Source: an uncultured Pseudomonadales bacterium
Lineage (GTDB): Bacteria; Patescibacteriota; Microgenomatia; UBA1400; UBA1449
DNA length: 64,000 bases
Reading direction: 5' to 3'
Assembly (NCBI GenBank): GCA_964386355.1
Contig: CAYLQQ010000006.1
Coordinates: 2,088-66,087, forward strand
The notes under the pieces were generated by a model. It was given only the letters and a program-made list of their open reading frames with translations, ran no database searches and was not told where the DNA came from. This document shows, piece after piece, positions 44,789 to 50,873 of the stretch. Numbering within the stretch: the first letter of the stretch is position 1; every line of letters begins with the position of its first letter. The position numbers and the translations under genes were made by a program.

Positions 44789-47700
44789 ATGCATCAATTA
44801 TTTTCAAACCGCCTGTTTTTTTCTTTCAGTTTTTTAACAATCTTTGGCCTCACTAACTTTTTACCAAATTTCAAACTCCCTTTTTTCCATACCTCTCCCT
44901 CGCCTACACCTGCTCCGCATGCAACAGAAATGCCACAAACCGATGGAGATGTACTGGGAAATTACCGCTACAAGCCCAGCATTCACATCAGTGGAGGCAA
45001 GGATAGCTATAGTACGGGTGGACTTATAGCACTTTCTTCAAAAGAAGAACCGTCAGTTGAGATTAGTGCATACAATACTTCGGGCGAGGTCCAAATTGAT
45101 GTCTGGGAAGCAGATGAGCAGGCTGTGTTAGAGTACCTGACCCATGACAAAGATGGGAAACAAACCAAACGGATTGAGTCTGTTGACAGATTCAAGTTTA
45201 TCGGTACCAGCAAAGCAGATATTAATGGCAGCTACGGAAGAGAATCAAAAGCCTTGCTCCCTCTTGCTGAAACAGGAATCTATTTTTTAAAGATCAGTAA
45301 AGGAGATATTGCAGAACAAGCGTTTATCATTAGGTCATCTTTTGGAGCGGTAGTAAAGGAAGGTGACGATGAACTCATCTTTTGGTCACAGGATTTTGAT
45401 ACCAAACGAAGTCTACAGTCAGGAACGGTCACTACGTTTAACTTGCTCGATAACGCAGTTGAAGTCACAAGTGCAGGGATTGACGGACAAGGTGTTGCCA
45501 AACTGCCTGTGTCAGAAAACAATGATATTGCTCTGGTAAAAAATGACGGTAAACTGGCAGTGGTCCCCTTAAACCTTCGGTACCTTAACTACGGCTATTC
45601 GTATAAAGAATTTCAGCGCAAAGAAAGGCAAAATAAGTTCTTTACCTTTACAGATAGACCGCTGTACAGACCTGGAGATACGATCTATTTTAAATCAGTT
45701 GTCAGAGATGACGATGATGCAAGATATACCCTACCAGCAGGAAATGTCACTGTTGGTTTATACTCAGGTTGGTCAGAAGAAGATAAAATCAGTGAAAAAA
45801 CACTCACATTTGATGAGTTTGGTACAGTTTCAGGTGATTTTAAATTGCCTGAAACTGCAAAAACCGGAGACTACCATGTTAAAATCAACCTTACAGAACG
45901 AATCTACTCAAATTCCTATTTTCAGGTCGAACATTTCCGTAAACCTGAATATTCTATTGATGTAAACATACCTAAAACCACATACATTTCAAAGGATGAA
46001 ATGGTATTTACCATATCTGGTTCATACTTTTCCGGTCAACCTCTTGCTAATCAAGCTGTAAAATACCGGGTCTTTAGCGGAGATTACTACCAGTATGAGT
46101 ATTATGATGAAACTGACGCATATTTTCTTAATGAGGATTATCGGTACGGAAACTGGTGGGGTAATAGCTCAGAGCAATCTTCGATGACGGTCACTCTCAA
46201 TCATCTGGGCAAAGCTGATGTCACCTTAAAACTGGATAATAATTCAAACAGAAACCGAGTGTATTCAATCGAAGCAGAGTTTGATAACGGCTCAGGCAAT
46301 CCAAGCTTTGTACGGAAAAATATGCTTGTGTACGCTGGTGAGTATGACCTGTACCGCAAAGACTACCATTCATATTATGGTTCGCTTTCACAACCACTTG
46401 ATCTTCCGCTTCGATTAGTTAGCCACGTAAACCAGCCAGTTAGTAATATTGATCTACATACAAACATTGAGGTTACAAATTGGGTAGAAGAACGTGTCCC
46501 GGAGGAAAAATACCCAAGGTATAGGAAGGTGGTTGAAACTGTACCAAGTATATCTTCAAAAACTGATAATCAAGGGTATGCTACCTTCAGTTTCCAACCT
46601 ACCAAGACGGGCTCATACACATTTCATGTAATAGGTACCGACAAACGGGGCAATACAATCTCAAAAGATTTTTATGCCTATGTAACCGATAAAAATTACC
46701 CGTACTTTAGCTCTGAACAAGATACAGGTTTGAGCTTACAGCTAGATAAAAAGGAGTATAACCCAACTGATACAGCTACACTCTCAATTTTTTCAAACAT
46801 ACCCAACCGCGATATCTTTTTGACATTTGAACGAAATCGAGTAAATAGGTACCAGGTATTATCATTGGAGGGTACCAATGGCTCAGTAGAAGTCCCTCTT
46901 TTTGATACTGACATGCCTAATATTTACCCGACTTTGACAAGTTTTTCCGATGACAATATTGATAGGGTTTCAGAAAATTTGAAGGTTTCAACTGTTTCTA
47001 AACAGCTTCAGGTACGTATCCAAACAGATAAACCCAGTTATGGTCCTGGTGAAGTTGTAACTGCCCGGCTCGAGACTAGTGATATGGCTGGAAATCCCCA
47101 ATCAGCTGATGTAGCCTTGTGGGCAGTTGATAAGGCGTTATTTGAATTGGTAAGTGAAAATCCTAAAAAAATCAGTGAAACATTCTGGAGTGAGCGCTAT
47201 GCAAATACCTCAACTGCCCACTCCCTTGAGGGCATTACAGCTAATGTGGCTGAAATGGGGGGTTGTTTTACTGCTGGCACACAAATTTTATTAGCCAACG
47301 GGACCTCTTCTCCTATTGAATCGATCAAACCGGGAGATGTAATTAAAACAAGAAAAAGCGAAACCAACAGTGCGCTTGTCAAAGCAAAAGTTAGTTCTGT
47401 TCATATTGCTACTGTTTCAGGGATATTGAAAATAAACAATAACCTGGAAGTTACACCTGAACACATTGTCTGGCTCAATGGCCGCTGGCAGGAAATTGGT
47501 AATGCTCAGATTGGTGATCTACTCTTTGACAGGCAGGGTAAAAAAGTACAGATAGCATCAATCGAATGGTTGTCCGGAAAACGAACCGTATATAACCTTG
47601 AAATTGAAAATAGGCATACGTATTTTGCAAACTCGGTTTGGGTGCATAACCAGAAAGGCGGAGGTGGAAGGACAGTTTTTAAAGATACTGCATACTGGAA

Positions 47701-49969
47701 CCCTTCTGTAAGAACTGATACTTCAGGCCGTGCCGTACTTCGTTTCAAGCTGCCGGATAACCTGACTACGTGGGTATTATCTGCAGTTGGAGATACACAA
47801 GCAACTACTGTCGGACAAACACGAAATGAAATTGTAGTTTCCAAAGATGTCATTGTTCGCCCATTCTTACCAAATATCATTCGTGAACAAGATGATCTGG
47901 CAATTCTAACCCTGGTTCAAAACTTTACTGATCAGGATCATAGTTTTGATATCAATTTATCTTTTGACTCAGGTGATGTTAGAGATGCGACAAAATCAGC
48001 AGTTTTTATCAAATCAAAAGAGTCTGTTGAGGTTACATGGCAGGTAAAGGCAACTAAAGTTAATCCTGATTCTAAACTCCGTTTTTCTGCTATTGCTACC
48101 GATAACTCTAAACTGCAGGATGTGATCACTCAACAGATACCTGTCCACGCATATGGGTATTTAGAAACCCGGGGTGAAACAGGTTATGGCGATGCGTCAT
48201 TTAAACCAGTACTCGCAAAAGACAGCAGCCCAGAGAAATCCTCCGTTACCCTATCACTCTCTCCTTCACTAGTCGGAATGTTGCCTACAGCAATGCAGTA
48301 CTTAGTTGATTACCCGTACGGCTGCGTAGAGCAAACCACGAGCCGTCTCATGCCTGTGTTGCAAGCTAAACAAAACCCTGAACTCTTTGCGGATGTAATC
48401 AAAGACAAAAATCTTGATGAAATGGTTAACAAAGGATTGGATCGTCTGAGAACTCTGCAGTACTTTGATGGTGGTTGGAACTGGTGGTCATATGGTGAAT
48501 CAAATCCCTTTATCACTGCATATGTTGTTGAAAACCTAGTTCTTGCTAAAGACTTGGGGTTTTCAGTGGACAGTGAAATGCTCCAATTGGCTGAAAGCTT
48601 CTTATCCCGGATTGATAAACAAATTACAGCAGAAGATATGATTCCCAAAAAATATGGCCTTGCCCTGCTTAAATCTGAAACGTATAAAACGTCAAGAAGT
48701 CCTGTCATTGAAAACAGTCCAGATCTTACCGCTCTGGCAGTTATGACAAATTACCTCAATGGAGTGACAGATCCCTCAGAAAACGGTTTGCAAAAACTTA
48801 TTGCAATGGGAAAGGCACAAGGAGATGGTTTGTACTGGGAAGCTGGCAAGAAAGATCGCTTTGCATCCAAAGATGCCTCAACAGCTCTGGCTTTACGGGC
48901 AATTCTTTTGGCGGGCACGGATGCTGATAGGGAAATAGCAGTCAAAGCTGCACGGTACTTAACCAAGCAACACCGTAGTCACTACTGGTCAAACACCTAC
49001 AGCACAGTGCAGGTTATACGCGCAATTACTGCCCTTGCCAATACTGATAACGAAGCTAATCCAAACTATACGTATTCGGTAACCCTGGATAACAAGATTG
49101 TTAAACAAGGAACAATAAATTCTATTAACCAAAAACCAGTTCAGATTCAAGTTCCCATAGCCAACCTAAAACCCAATGGTTCAGTATTGAGCATTTCTAA
49201 GCAAGGTGAAGGTCAAATATACTCCACATTAGTCACAAAGGAATTTCATACTGATAGAACTGCAAAAGCAATAGATCACGGCATGACCATAACCAGAGAG
49301 TATGTAAATGAAAAAGGAGAGGAATATAGTCTTGGTCTTGGTGATACTGCAATTGTAAAACTGACAATAGGCGGACTCGGGGCTGGCGATTACTATGGCG
49401 TGATCGCTGATGAACTACCCGCAGGACTGATCCCTGTTGTTGAAACTCTAAAAAATGAACAGTACAGAGATACTGGAAGCAGTTCTTATGATTATTATGC
49501 AGGCAGTAAAGAGTATACACAAAATGGTGTAATAATTTCTCTCTACCAGATATTACCAGGAACAAGAACATACGAATACAAAGCAAGGGTCGTTTCTCAT
49601 GGATCGTTTATTGTTCCTCCTGCCACAACGTCTCTCATGTACACACCTGAAATATATGGACAATCAGATGCTTACACGTTAACCATAGACAAAGAATCAA
49701 AAATTATTCCAGGTAAAAAGATCCAGAAAATCATTAAGGATAAAAGCAATTTACGACTAGATGAAAAAGCTAAACTCAAGCTGGGGATAATTTTACTAGT
49801 TGCTGTAATACTGATAATAAGCTTGCTTTTGCTACGTCCGGCTATTAGAAATACGTTTTTATATAAACAGCTTACACAAAAGCTACGTATTCTACGCAGA
49901 AAACAGAATCCAGAAACTATACATTTAGAAGATGATATACAGCAAAATCCGCCCCCTCAGCAACAGTAA
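44789..49969 (+). CDS. Alpha-2-macroglobulin-family surface protein (1726 aa) with embedded Hint domain
   Basis: N-terminal signal/anchor MHQLFSNRLFFSFSFLTIFGL. Long beta-rich region of macroglobulin-like repeats. Thioester motif YPYGCVEQTTSRLMP, with CVEQ at ~48323..48334. Alpha-helical TED-like region (LQYFDGGWNWWSYGESNPFITAYVV). C-terminal TM helix LGIILLVAVILIISLLLL. Residues ~826-954 form an intein-type Hint domain, listed separately. Confidence 0.82.
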   Translation: MHQLFSNRLFFSFSFLTIFGLTNFLPNFKLPFFHTSPSPTPAPHATEMPQTDGDVLGNYRYKPSIHISGGKDSYSTGGLIALSSKEEPSVEISAYNTSGEVQIDVWEADEQAVLEYLTHDKDGKQTKRIESVDRFKFIGTSKADINGSYGRESKALLPLAETGIYFLKISKGDIAEQAFIIRSSFGAVVKEGDDELIFWSQDFDTKRSLQSGTVTTFNLLDNAVEVTSAGIDGQGVAKLPVSENNDIALVKNDGKLAVVPLNLRYLNYGYSYKEFQRKERQNKFFTFTDRPLYRPGDTIYFKSVVRDDDDARYTLPAGNVTVGLYSGWSEEDKISEKTLTFDEFGTVSGDFKLPETAKTGDYHVKINLTERIYSNSYFQVEHFRKPEYSIDVNIPKTTYISKDEMVFTISGSYFSGQPLANQAVKYRVFSGDYYQYEYYDETDAYFLNEDYRYGNWWGNSSEQSSMTVTLNHLGKADVTLKLDNNSNRNRVYSIEAEFDNGSGNPSFVRKNMLVYAGEYDLYRKDYHSYYGSLSQPLDLPLRLVSHVNQPVSNIDLHTNIEVTNWVEERVPEEKYPRYRKVVETVPSISSKTDNQGYATFSFQPTKTGSYTFHVIGTDKRGNTISKDFYAYVTDKNYPYFSSEQDTGLSLQLDKKEYNPTDTATLSIFSNIPNRDIFLTFERNRVNRYQVLSLEGTNGSVEVPLFDTDMPNIYPTLTSFSDDNIDRVSENLKVSTVSKQLQVRIQTDKPSYGPGEVVTARLETSDMAGNPQSADVALWAVDKALFELVSENPKKISETFWSERYANTSTAHSLEGITANVAEMGGCFTAGTQILLANGTSSPIESIKPGDVIKTRKSETNSALVKAKVSSVHIATVSGILKINNNLEVTPEHIVWLNGRWQEIGNAQIGDLLFDRQGKKVQIASIEWLSGKRTVYNLEIENRHTYFANSVWVHNQKGGGGRTVFKDTAYWNPSVRTDTSGRAVLRFKLPDNLTTWVLSAVGDTQATTVGQTRNEIVVSKDVIVRPFLPNIIREQDDLAILTLVQNFTDQDHSFDINLSFDSGDVRDATKSAVFIKSKESVEVTWQVKATKVNPDSKLRFSAIATDNSKLQDVITQQIPVHAYGYLETRGETGYGDASFKPVLAKDSSPEKSSVTLSLSPSLVGMLPTAMQYLVDYPYGCVEQTTSRLMPVLQAKQNPELFADVIKDKNLDEMVNKGLDRLRTLQYFDGGWNWWSYGESNPFITAYVVENLVLAKDLGFSVDSEMLQLAESFLSRIDKQITAEDMIPKKYGLALLKSETYKTSRSPVIENSPDLTALAVMTNYLNGVTDPSENGLQKLIAMGKAQGDGLYWEAGKKDRFASKDASTALALRAILLAGTDADREIAVKAARYLTKQHRSHYWSNTYSTVQVIRAITALANTDNEANPNYTYSVTLDNKIVKQGTINSINQKPVQIQVPIANLKPNGSVLSISKQGEGQIYSTLVTKEFHTDRTAKAIDHGMTITREYVNEKGEEYSLGLGDTAIVKLTIGGLGAGDYYGVIADELPAGLIPVVETLKNEQYRDTGSSSYDYYAGSKEYTQNGVIISLYQILPGTRTYEYKARVVSHGSFIVPPATTSLMYTPEIYGQSDAYTLTIDKESKIIPGKKIQKIIKDKSNLRLDEKAKLKLGIILLVAVILIISLLLLRPAIRNTFLYKQLTQKLRILRRKQNPETIHLEDDIQQNPPPQQQ
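47264..47650 (+). other. Intein-like Hint / bacterial intein-like (BIL, A-type) domain inserted in the A2M protein
   Basis: 129 aa. Block A CFTAGTQILLANGTSSPIESIKPGDVIKT begins with Cys and is closely similar to canonical intein N-termini. Block B LEVTPEHIVWL (T..H). Block F/G VYNLEIENRHTYFANSVWVHN ends in His-Asn. There is no endonuclease domain. The +1 residue is Gln, not Cys/Ser/Thr. Flanks are Gly-rich (EMGG | ... | QKGGGG). Confidence 0.75.
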
Positions 49970-50873
49970 GCTAGTAGTATTAATTGTGATAAGTGCCGTA
50001 TGTCTTGGACTTGCGTTCATCTTGTTTTGGTCAAGCAAGTTCGAAGATATTGAGCAAACTAGTCTTCAAGCCAGGGTTCCTGCATCCTCTTTAAACAGTA
50101 AATACTATGACCTGACAGATATGGATACCAGTGAGTTTACTTCATACCTTAAAGGGTTAACTCAAAATCCCGAGCAATTAAAATATCCTGTTTCTGGCAT
50201 TGTTGTGCCGCACCATTTGCTTGCCGGAAGCCTAATTGCCCGGATACTGCAGCAAACTTCATTTCAAAATCCACGTACGGTGCTTCTTATTGGGCCTAAC
50301 CATTACGAAGCCGGAACTTTCGGTCTGATAACGAGTAATGCTGGATGGAAAACACCGTTTGGTCAGGTTCTACCTAACCAAACATGGATTGAACTACTTA
50401 CACAAAGGGGGGATGTGTATACTAATAATGATGTCATGCTTAAAGAACATGCTATATCGGGACTCATACCCTTTATCAGTTACTTTTTTCCTTTCGCTAG
50501 CCATACACCTGTAATTGTAAGTAGTTTTACACCCTTACAAGATATTGATTTATTATCTTCAGTAATTGCACAAAATCTTGATCAGAACACAATCCTTATT
50601 TTATCTCTTGATTTCTCGCATTATCTCAATAGTGAACAAGCTACTGATCGAGATTCAGTCAGTTTACAAGCAATTACAGGTTTTGATTATGAAAAAATTG
50701 CCAGATTTACCAATGAGTATGTTGACAGTCCGAAAAGTTTAAGACTGTTCTTAAAAGTTATGCAGCAAAGAGGTAAAACAAATATTACTGTTATTGACCA
50801 TACAAACTCAGGAAATATCACAGGAAATATTCACAGTGAAAATACGAGTTACTACACGCTGACATTTCACTAA
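49932..50873 (+). CDS. Memo-like protein (MEMO1 / AmmeMemoRadiSam protein B family) with N-terminal membrane anchor
   Basis: 313 aa. The start overlaps the A2M 3' end by 38 nt. TM helix LVVLIVISAVCLGLAFILFW. Memo-like motifs GIVVPHHLLAG and LLIGPNHY. Confidence 0.55.
   Translation: MIYSKIRPLSNSKLVVLIVISAVCLGLAFILFWSSKFEDIEQTSLQARVPASSLNSKYYDLTDMDTSEFTSYLKGLTQNPEQLKYPVSGIVVPHHLLAGSLIARILQQTSFQNPRTVLLIGPNHYEAGTFGLITSNAGWKTPFGQVLPNQTWIELLTQRGDVYTNNDVMLKEHAISGLIPFISYFFPFASHTPVIVSSFTPLQDIDLLSSVIAQNLDQNTILILSLDFSHYLNSEQATDRDSVSLQAITGFDYEKIARFTNEYVDSPKSLRLFLKVMQQRGKTNITVIDHTNSGNITGNIHSENTSYYTLTFH

Follow-up and report, generated by a model that had tools for sequence, protein, structure and literature searches.

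We analysed a 64,000-nucleotide (nt) stretch of contig CAYLQQ010000006.1 (hereafter the window), from an uncultured bacterium placed in the Patescibacteriota. One open reading frame (ORF) on its forward strand encodes an alpha-2-macroglobulin (A2M) of the thioester type, and within the loop that serves A2Ms as protease bait this protein carries a Hint domain of the bacterial intein-like (BIL) class. Conservation is given over 120 homologs listed from a search with the whole protein (39-100% identity); in the alignment, 111 of them hold the Hint at the same site and are called carriers. The features in and around the insert are listed below, with pLDDT (predicted local distance difference test) values from an AlphaFold model.

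44789..49969, + strand: A2M gene that hosts the Hint, an ORF of 1726 aa (thioester-type A2M)
46730..47149, + strand: A2M_BRD Pfam match, residues 648-787, upstream of the Hint (PF07703, E=1.2e-13)
47231..47263, + strand: N-side bait tether GITANVAEMGG, residues 815-825, ending in Gly-1 (pLDDT below 50 at 815-823)
47264..47650, + strand: BIL-type Hint domain of 129 aa, residues 826-954, without endonuclease (from Pfam, NCBIfam, the match to 2LWY and the fold)
47264..47266, + strand: Cys826, Cys1 of the Hint and predicted nucleophile of the N-S acyl shift (111/111 carriers)
47453..47464, + strand: block B motif T-P-E-H, residues 889-892 (Thr889 in 110/111 carriers, His892 in 111/111)
47645..47650, + strand: terminal His953-Asn954, block G, predicted site of Asn cyclisation (His 111/111, Asn 111/111)
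47651..47683, + strand: C-side flank QKGGGGRTVFK, residues 955-965, a Gly tether (pLDDT below 50 at 957-965)
47687..47953, + strand: A2M Pfam domain, residues 967-1055, which begins at the conserved TAYWNP just past the bait (PF00207, E=7.1e-17)
48323..48334, + strand: thioester motif CVEQ, residues 1179-1182, aligned with CLEQ at 1187 of the Escherichia coli A2M, ECAM

The insert is a Hint domain of the BIL class, and it is type-A-like. Translation of 47264-47650 gives CFTAGTQILLANG at the start, TPEH inside and NRHTYFANSVWVHN at the end. The Pfam family PT-HINT (PF07591) scores 35.4 bits on the whole A2M and 40.0 bits on the insert alone (E=5.9e-10) against a cutoff of 27.7, and Vint scores 31.7 bits on the whole protein (cutoff, 27). 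The NCBIfam profile intein_Cterm (TIGR01443) gives 20.4 bits on the whole A2M and 23.0 on the insert (cutoff, 15.6). Among the Pfam matches to the 1726-aa protein (MG2, A2M_BRD, PT-HINT, Vint, A2M, TED_complement, and bMG10), the Hint families fall between A2M_BRD and A2M, and precomputed Hint Pfam matches are found on nearly all of the 120 homologs. When the insert is searched against solved structures, its top sequence match is a BIL of Clostridium thermocellum (2LWY, E=3.3e-8). Judged by these profile and sequence scores, the identity of the domain lies far beyond chance.

The fold agrees with the profiles. An AlphaFold model of the insert alone has a mean pLDDT of 97.4, and Foldseek gives it template modelling (TM) scores of 0.89-0.90 to the BILs 6Y75, 6TMM and 2LWY (E about 1e-10); inteins (0.67-0.82) and the Hedgehog Hint (0.74-0.75) both rank behind. 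With the C. thermocellum type A BIL (2LWY, TM-score 0.90) the insert shares the Hint fold, a length of about 130 aa, Cys1, the block B T..H, the terminal His-Asn, the lack of a +1 nucleophile and of an endonuclease, and, by prediction, a secreted bacterial host. The C-terminal His-Asn is the feature that sets type A apart from type B BILs (PMC4031507). PF07591, whose match lies above the gathering score, is also the family of the pretoxin-HINT of polymorphic toxin systems; unlike in those systems, what follows the Hint here is A2M, TED, bMG10, a transmembrane helix and a Memo-family gene, and there is no C-terminal toxin and immunity layout. No further Hint domain was found in the window.

Across the family the Hint is 125-129 aa long in all 111 carriers, a mini size without a homing endonuclease, and its catalytic residues are invariant or nearly so down to about 40% host identity. 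Phe2 follows Cys1 in 110 of the 111 carriers. On the N side, Ala at -5 is kept in 95/111, Glu at -4 in 105/111, Gly at -2 in 109/111 and Gly at -1 in 111/111. The residue directly after the terminal Asn (+1) is Gln in 78 carriers, Glu in 15 and Asp in 15 (108/111 together), and Gly, Asn and Lys occur there once each; Lys at +2 (110/111) and Gly at +3 (108/111) are nearly fixed. We also examined the best 80 loci of species-representative genomes, using the TAYWNP motif as an anchor, and 21 of them bear the Hint. These 21 have the same catalytic set, including a clade that is 30-35% identical, with only Gln, Glu, Asp, Asn or Gly at +1. Thus Cys, Ser or Thr at +1 occurs in none of the 111 carrier proteins and none of the 21 Hint-bearing loci.

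A sequence-only reading of this DNA had proposed an intein-type Hint/BIL domain of mini size, without a homing endonuclease and with a non-nucleophilic +1 residue, and had suggested looking for the insert in orthologs; profiles, fold and the family alignment bear it out on each of these points. Its account of the C-side flank, Gln followed directly by GGGG, was right about Gln at +1 and wrong about what comes next: the flank reads Q-K-GGGG, with Lys at +2.

The position of the insert is given by alignment to ECAM, the product of yfhM in E. coli K-12. The family profile aligns to it by hhalign with a probability of 100 over 1372 columns, and a sequence search with the whole A2M against solved structures matches ECAM and the Salmonella A2M (SaA2M). 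E802-R803-Y804 falls opposite K922-R923-Y924 of ECAM, and A821-G825, the A-E-x-G-G ahead of the Hint, opposite about E937-G940. The N-side tether thus corresponds to ~933-940 and the insertion point to ~938-942. In ECAM cleaved by elastase, the bait from Arg923 to Leu942 is disordered and residues 956-963 dock onto the C-terminal macroglobulin (MG) domain; cleavage untethers the bait and activates the protein (PMC4498604). Since the alignment falls within the disordered Arg923-Leu942 stretch, the Hint maps inside the bait itself, in the MG8-equivalent domain. The sequence-only reading had put the insert roughly at the bait and the thioester about 230 residues downstream; the alignment supports the first claim, and CVEQ starts 225 residues past Asn954. 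The thioester Cys, Glu and Gln are each present in 120/120 homologs.

In an AlphaFold model of residues 641-1110 the Hint stays confident, and the top fold matches of the model are native ECAM (5A42) and SaA2M (4U48). The pLDDT falls below 50 internally only at 815-823 and 957-965, the two tethers of about 9 residues; these are short, Gly-rich, conserved and disordered in the model. Because the predicted TM-score is 0.55, the placement of the Hint against the MG body is undefined in this model. By alignment and model, the Hint sits inside the A2M bait loop on flexible tethers.

The insert has been in this family for a long time. Pairwise distances of the Hint and of the host are correlated (Mantel r=0.75, reached by 0/999 permutations), the Hint has diverged slightly less than the host (p-distance 0.46 vs 0.50), and its GC content of 0.398 shows no anomaly against the gene (0.405) or the window, which is alike. 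Where their source is named, the homologs come from Woyke-, Davies-, Woese-, Beckwith- or Roizmanbacteria or from the "Patescibacteria group". Judging from these comparisons, the Hint became fixed long ago and has descended vertically ever since, as a family trait and not a singular event. The BILs described so far are found where secreted, non-conserved bacterial proteins are hypervariable (PMC7765530). The A2M Hint differs from them in occupying one orthologous site of a conserved family, with vertical descent over deep divergence, and in lying at the mechanistic trigger of its host family. Its host is predicted to be extracytoplasmic and the bait is a classically variable site in A2Ms, yet host, site and flanks are all conserved and orthologous.

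Nine homologs lack the Hint, and they are scattered across the neighbor-joining tree of the family, built on p-distances; one of them, P0081, is 79% identical to the Hint-bearing P0039. This scatter and the P0081/P0039 pair imply that the Hint was lost at least two times, and probably more than two. At the bait the Hint-less proteins read A-E-x-G(5-8)-x-x-R, without the Q-K. When the Hint is subtracted from the carriers, 22-27 aa of linker are left (mode, 23), and the linker of the Hint-less orthologs measures 22-26 aa. We make no claim of selection for retention from 9 losses in 120, as slow neutral loss fits too. Conservation of the catalytic residues as decisive evidence of domestication was likewise rejected: any Hint forced to remove itself would look alike.

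What would such a domain do in a bait? Our preferred reading, which we regard as about evenly balanced between right and wrong, is that a type-A-like BIL in the Gly-rich bait of a surface-anchored A2M of Patescibacteria (the candidate phyla radiation [CPR], Microgenomates-type) excises itself and that its flanks are re-joined. The A2M would be exported and fold. Cys826 would then attack the Gly825 carbonyl in an N-S acyl shift, giving a Gly thioester, and cyclisation of Asn954 would sever the Asn954-Gln955 bond and release a 14.3-kDa Hint. To resolve the thioester and re-join the halves, the favored nucleophile would be an amine from the C-flank: the alpha-amine newly freed on Gln955, or the epsilon-amine of Lys956. 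The product would be a Gly-rich bait of about 23 residues, with the length and character seen in the Hint-less orthologs, and some molecules would be left as two cleaved chains. The occurrence of this chemistry, its location and the identity of the resolving nucleophile are inferred here.

The individual steps have precedents. BILs cannot form the branched intermediate; in type A an N-terminal thioester forms and the C-junction is cut by Asn cyclisation (PMC4031507; PMC7664689). The freed alpha-amine of type A BILs can attack the thioester and ligate the flanks (PMC4031507), and BIL2 of Tetrahymena thermophila resolves a Gly-Gly thioester by ligation to the epsilon-amine of a Lys (PMC8616854). 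As both can ligate via amines, re-ligation, a route that the sequence-only reading had left out of account, would be at least as likely as pure self-cleavage. We favor it because the predicted product equals the Hint-less bait in length and character, because the Hint-less orthologs show the family working with an intact linker, and because a near-invariant Lys adjoins the junction.

Several observations weigh against re-joining. In vitro, BILs are mostly cleaved and little ligated (PMC4031507; PMC7664689), so that pure cleavage has to be taken seriously as an alternative. Whenever the Hint must act, its catalytic residues should be conserved, and their conservation therefore cannot separate the outcomes. 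Equal linker lengths could also arise through deletion between the flanking runs of Gly codons. The near-invariant Lys at +2 and the preference for Gln, Glu or Asp at +1 are left unaccounted for by the mechanism. Finally, the bait flanks at 47157-47263 and 47651-47686 (residues 790-825 and 955-966) have mean column conservation of 0.67 and 0.72, above the family average, whereas normal A2M baits vary.

The alternative that survives best, possible though on balance unlikely, is self-cleavage without re-ligation. Here the Hint would cut both junctions and leave, and the A2M would become a two-chain protein, with an N-terminal part of ~93 kDa and a membrane-anchored C-terminal part of ~86 kDa. 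The A2M would thus carry its own trigger, independent of proteases, for exposing the CVEQ thioester, and this trigger might be gated by redox, pH or metal ions. It draws strength from the predominantly cleaved products of BILs (PMC7664689; PMC4031507), from a location that corresponds to the place at which a cut frees the bait and activates ECAM (PMC4498604), and from the invariant Gly-1; Zn is known to modulate the activity of BIL2, in line with gating (PMC8616854). The Hint-less orthologs argue the other way. They are nested among carriers, as in the 79% identical pair of P0081 and P0039, and retain the CxEQ together with an uninterrupted linker, so the core function of the family appears to work with an uncut bait. 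Constitutive self-firing would in addition waste the thioester, and no regulatory element for gating was identified.

In the next alternative, which seems improbable to us, the Gly825 thioester is handed off in the style of Hedgehog or BUBL: an outside amine or hydroxyl, on a target protein or the cell envelope, would attack it, and the N-terminal 825-residue MG array would be coupled covalently to the target as a second warhead besides CVEQ. The junction G-G|C-F mirrors the ubiquitin-like Gly-Gly that precedes BIL2 of the T. thermophila BUBL protein, and BIL2 (6Y75, 6TMM), which conjugates ubl4 to other proteins by an isopeptide bond (PMC8616854), is among the closest folds at 0.89-0.90. The two are also alike in having Gly-Gly directly before Cys1 and a Lys in the C-extein. 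They differ in setting: BIL2 is eukaryotic and cytoplasmic and has ubiquitin-like flanks, whereas the A2M Hint is flanked by the halves of a bait, and isopeptide formation in the A2M is only a hypothesis.

The cleavage motif of Hedgehog is Gly-Cys-Phe, as at the A2M junction. Hedgehog Hog resembles the A2M Hint further in the thioester at the Gly carbonyl and in fold (TM-score 0.74-0.75), and related Hints occur in many surface proteins, which also suits a hand-off. Hog, in contrast, lacks a terminal His-Asn, ends its protein and needs a sterol-recognition region. The A2M Hint ends in His-Asn, no sterol- or adduct-recognition region follows it, and about 770 aa of A2M lie beyond, which is not the C-terminal layout of Hog. 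The conserved C-terminal Asn argues for a cut at the C-junction too, and this would be superfluous for pure transfer. No acceptor was identified, and the existence of Hint-less orthologs again speaks against a hand-off. Taken in the broader form that the Hint is a working part of the trap, by a possibly condition-gated self-cleavage that fires CVEQ or by passing the Gly825 thioester to a target lysine, the idea is doubtful.

A catalytically silent module, folded and never processed, which would serve as bulk in the bait or as a docking surface, would suit the confident fold on flexible tethers in the model, and no computation here demonstrates turnover. We consider it very unlikely, because a silent domain would not keep its catalytic residues fixed or almost fixed across 111 sequences whose hosts are as little as about 40% identical, nor would it retain Cys826 in an otherwise Cys-free ectodomain. 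The A2M has two cysteines only, Cys826 of the Hint (47264-47266) and Cys1179 of the thioester (48323-48325). Exactly two are found in 87/120 homologs, and 6 of the 9 Hint-less homologs have one.

Canonical splicing by a selfish mini-intein of class 1, which would use Cys, Ser or Thr at +1, is refuted by the +1 census (0/111 proteins, 0/21 loci). N- and C-terminal intein profiles do match and inteins are among the fold matches, but BIL structures match better and the insert has no endonuclease. Class 1 inteins are distributed sporadically as mobile elements and typically occupy conserved positions in essential proteins of the cytoplasm; the A2M insert shows vertical inheritance (Mantel r=0.75) and no GC anomaly, its host is predicted to be extracytoplasmic, and its site is a disordered Gly-rich loop and not a conserved active site.

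The remaining features of the locus concern the ends of the A2M and its neighbor.

44813..44872, + strand: N-terminal hydrophobic stretch, residues 9-28 (Kyte-Doolittle maximum 2.16, window 11)
49280..49651, + strand: bacterial MG10 C-terminal macroglobulin domain, residues 1498-1621 (PF17973, E=6.2e-17)
49781..49834, + strand: C-terminal transmembrane helix, residues 1665-1682, followed by a basic tail (Kyte-Doolittle above 1.6, window 19)
49932..50873, + strand: Memo-family gene, context only (PF01875, E=1.5e-23), overlapping the A2M 3' end by 38 nt

Residues 9-28 are probably a signal peptide or anchor with a presumed role in export, and a comparable stretch is found in 116/120 homologs. 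Residues 1659-1691, which include the transmembrane helix, are the sole A2M segment with a Kyte-Doolittle value above 1.6 (window 19), and a comparable helix occurs in 115/120 homologs. The topology predicted from these segments is an ectodomain outside the cell with a C-terminal anchor. The A2M shares with ECAM (YfhM) and SaA2M the MG array, a bait inside MG8, a CUB/TED with CxEQ and a C-terminal MG10. It differs from both in that its bait holds a Hint and has conserved, Gly-rich flanks. In contrast to its C-terminal helix, ECAM has an N-terminal lipoprotein anchor, and the first ~155 residues of ECAM are without a counterpart in the window A2M.

The neighbor is also different: Proteobacteria pair yfhM with pbpC, whereas here the gene directly downstream is Memo, whose product bears an N-terminal hydrophobic helix. 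The A2M-Memo pairing recurs in L003 (11313-12182), L004 (11073-11945) and the Hint-less L005 (10858-11796), and Memo lies downstream of A2M in 13/80 genome loci; the overlap of the two genes, 38 nt in the window, is 4 nt in L004. No plasmid match of the A2M gene was obtained by megablast against plasmids, and so there is no sign that it is plasmid-borne. Two minus-strand ORFs antisense to the A2M gene (47506-47880 and 48310-48708) had no family match at the cutoff and were set aside as chance ORFs.

The 30-35% identical clade among the genome loci is a second A2M group (L020-L023, L025), with ORFs of at least ~2,100-2,190 aa and the identity measured over a 470-aa region. In this group the Hint lies at about residue 1360, with junctions SKGGSGGG|CF...HN|QKG, and some 355 residues farther on comes an intact CxEQ, at the same spacing. 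A seemingly truncated Hint in L024 is not decay; part of the stored sequence there is masked as N. Hint-bearing L006, L007, L011, L014, L017 and L021 come from metagenome-assembled genomes (MAGs) labelled Nevskiaceae, Gammaproteobacteria, Bdellovibrionales or Bathyarchaeia. Several of these oddly labelled loci share the CPR-type A2M-Memo synteny and CPR-like sequence similarity; the labels may be wrong, or the A2M gene may have moved between lineages.

The Hint is absent from the other 59 of the best 80 loci; most of these bear the labels Chloroflexota or Acidobacteriota, and other CPR lineages are represented too. In many of the 59, a K-G-G-G-G(-G) run lies 8-15 residues ahead of an F-KDTAYWNP motif, and therefore the Gly run appears older than the Hint inserted in it. 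Such a run in the bait is seen in L030, L036, L043, L048, L050, L059, L071 and L079, whose labels are Peribacteria, Gracilibacteria, Parcubacteria, Anaerolineales and Dehalococcoidia. That a pentaglycine-like bait might be aimed at Gly-Gly endopeptidases is only an idea.

Related Hints are widespread. A profile search over 1.84 billion representative proteins matched 41,412 proteins at E≤1e-3, of which 705 reach E≤1e-30. Within these matches the A2M family has a single copy, near residue 800-980 of ~1650-1790-aa proteins. Many others have 2-11 copies, often in tandem with only K-G-G or K-G-C spacers (...VHN|KGG|CF...). Tandem arrays of 3-11 closely related Hints are present in the non-A2M proteins P0121, P0122, P0128, P0135, P0141, P0143, P0152 and others, and some arrays are fused to Tim44-like, PKD or Ig-like domains. 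PKD, Big_9, cadherin-like, Laminin_G_3, CARDB, pilin N-methyl and Tim44-like domains were found in the sampled non-A2M hosts; this is the kind of setting, at the surface or secreted, in which BILs have been described (PMC7765530).

Complement offers the nearest parallel for a folded domain at this place. C3, C4 and C5 reportedly have the anaphylatoxin domain and a chain-processing site at the bait-equivalent position, and furin and convertases cut at that loop. In both cases a whole folded domain lies in the bait-equivalent loop, and cleavage or removal there matures or activates the protein, or would do so in the A2M. The differences are that the A2M Hint would cut itself out and that the inserted folds are unrelated.

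We found no paper that pairs "bacterial intein-like" or "Hint domain" with macroglobulin, though most subscription journals lay outside the search and an earlier mention is possible. The works listed for both alpha-2-macroglobulin and intein were unrelated, and a 2026 review of A2Ms mentions neither inteins nor Hint domains. Databases automatically tag homologs with both the Hint and the A2M domain sets. The architecture is thus visible, since it is tagged, and apparently undescribed, since no paper was found.

In A2M-superfamily proteins, complement included, activation depends on cleavage of a single loop, and normally a separate protease does the cutting. In the family described here, a module of a self-cutting type is built into that trigger loop and has been kept over deep divergence, and the trap may be matured or triggered without an outside protease. 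If the Hint only splices out, it would be the first known case of a BIL that is fixed at an orthologous site of a conserved family and passed on vertically, and it would provide a clean natural system for extracellular splicing without a +1 nucleophile. If cleavage or transfer is true, a thioester protein would have a new route to arming that needs no activating protease, two different thioester chemistries would operate in one polypeptide, and the finding would bear on how ultra-small CPR bacteria protect their surface or attach. Were the Hint a working part of the trap, an episymbiotic CPR cell would possess a self-arming, two-thioester device for covalent capture or adhesion.

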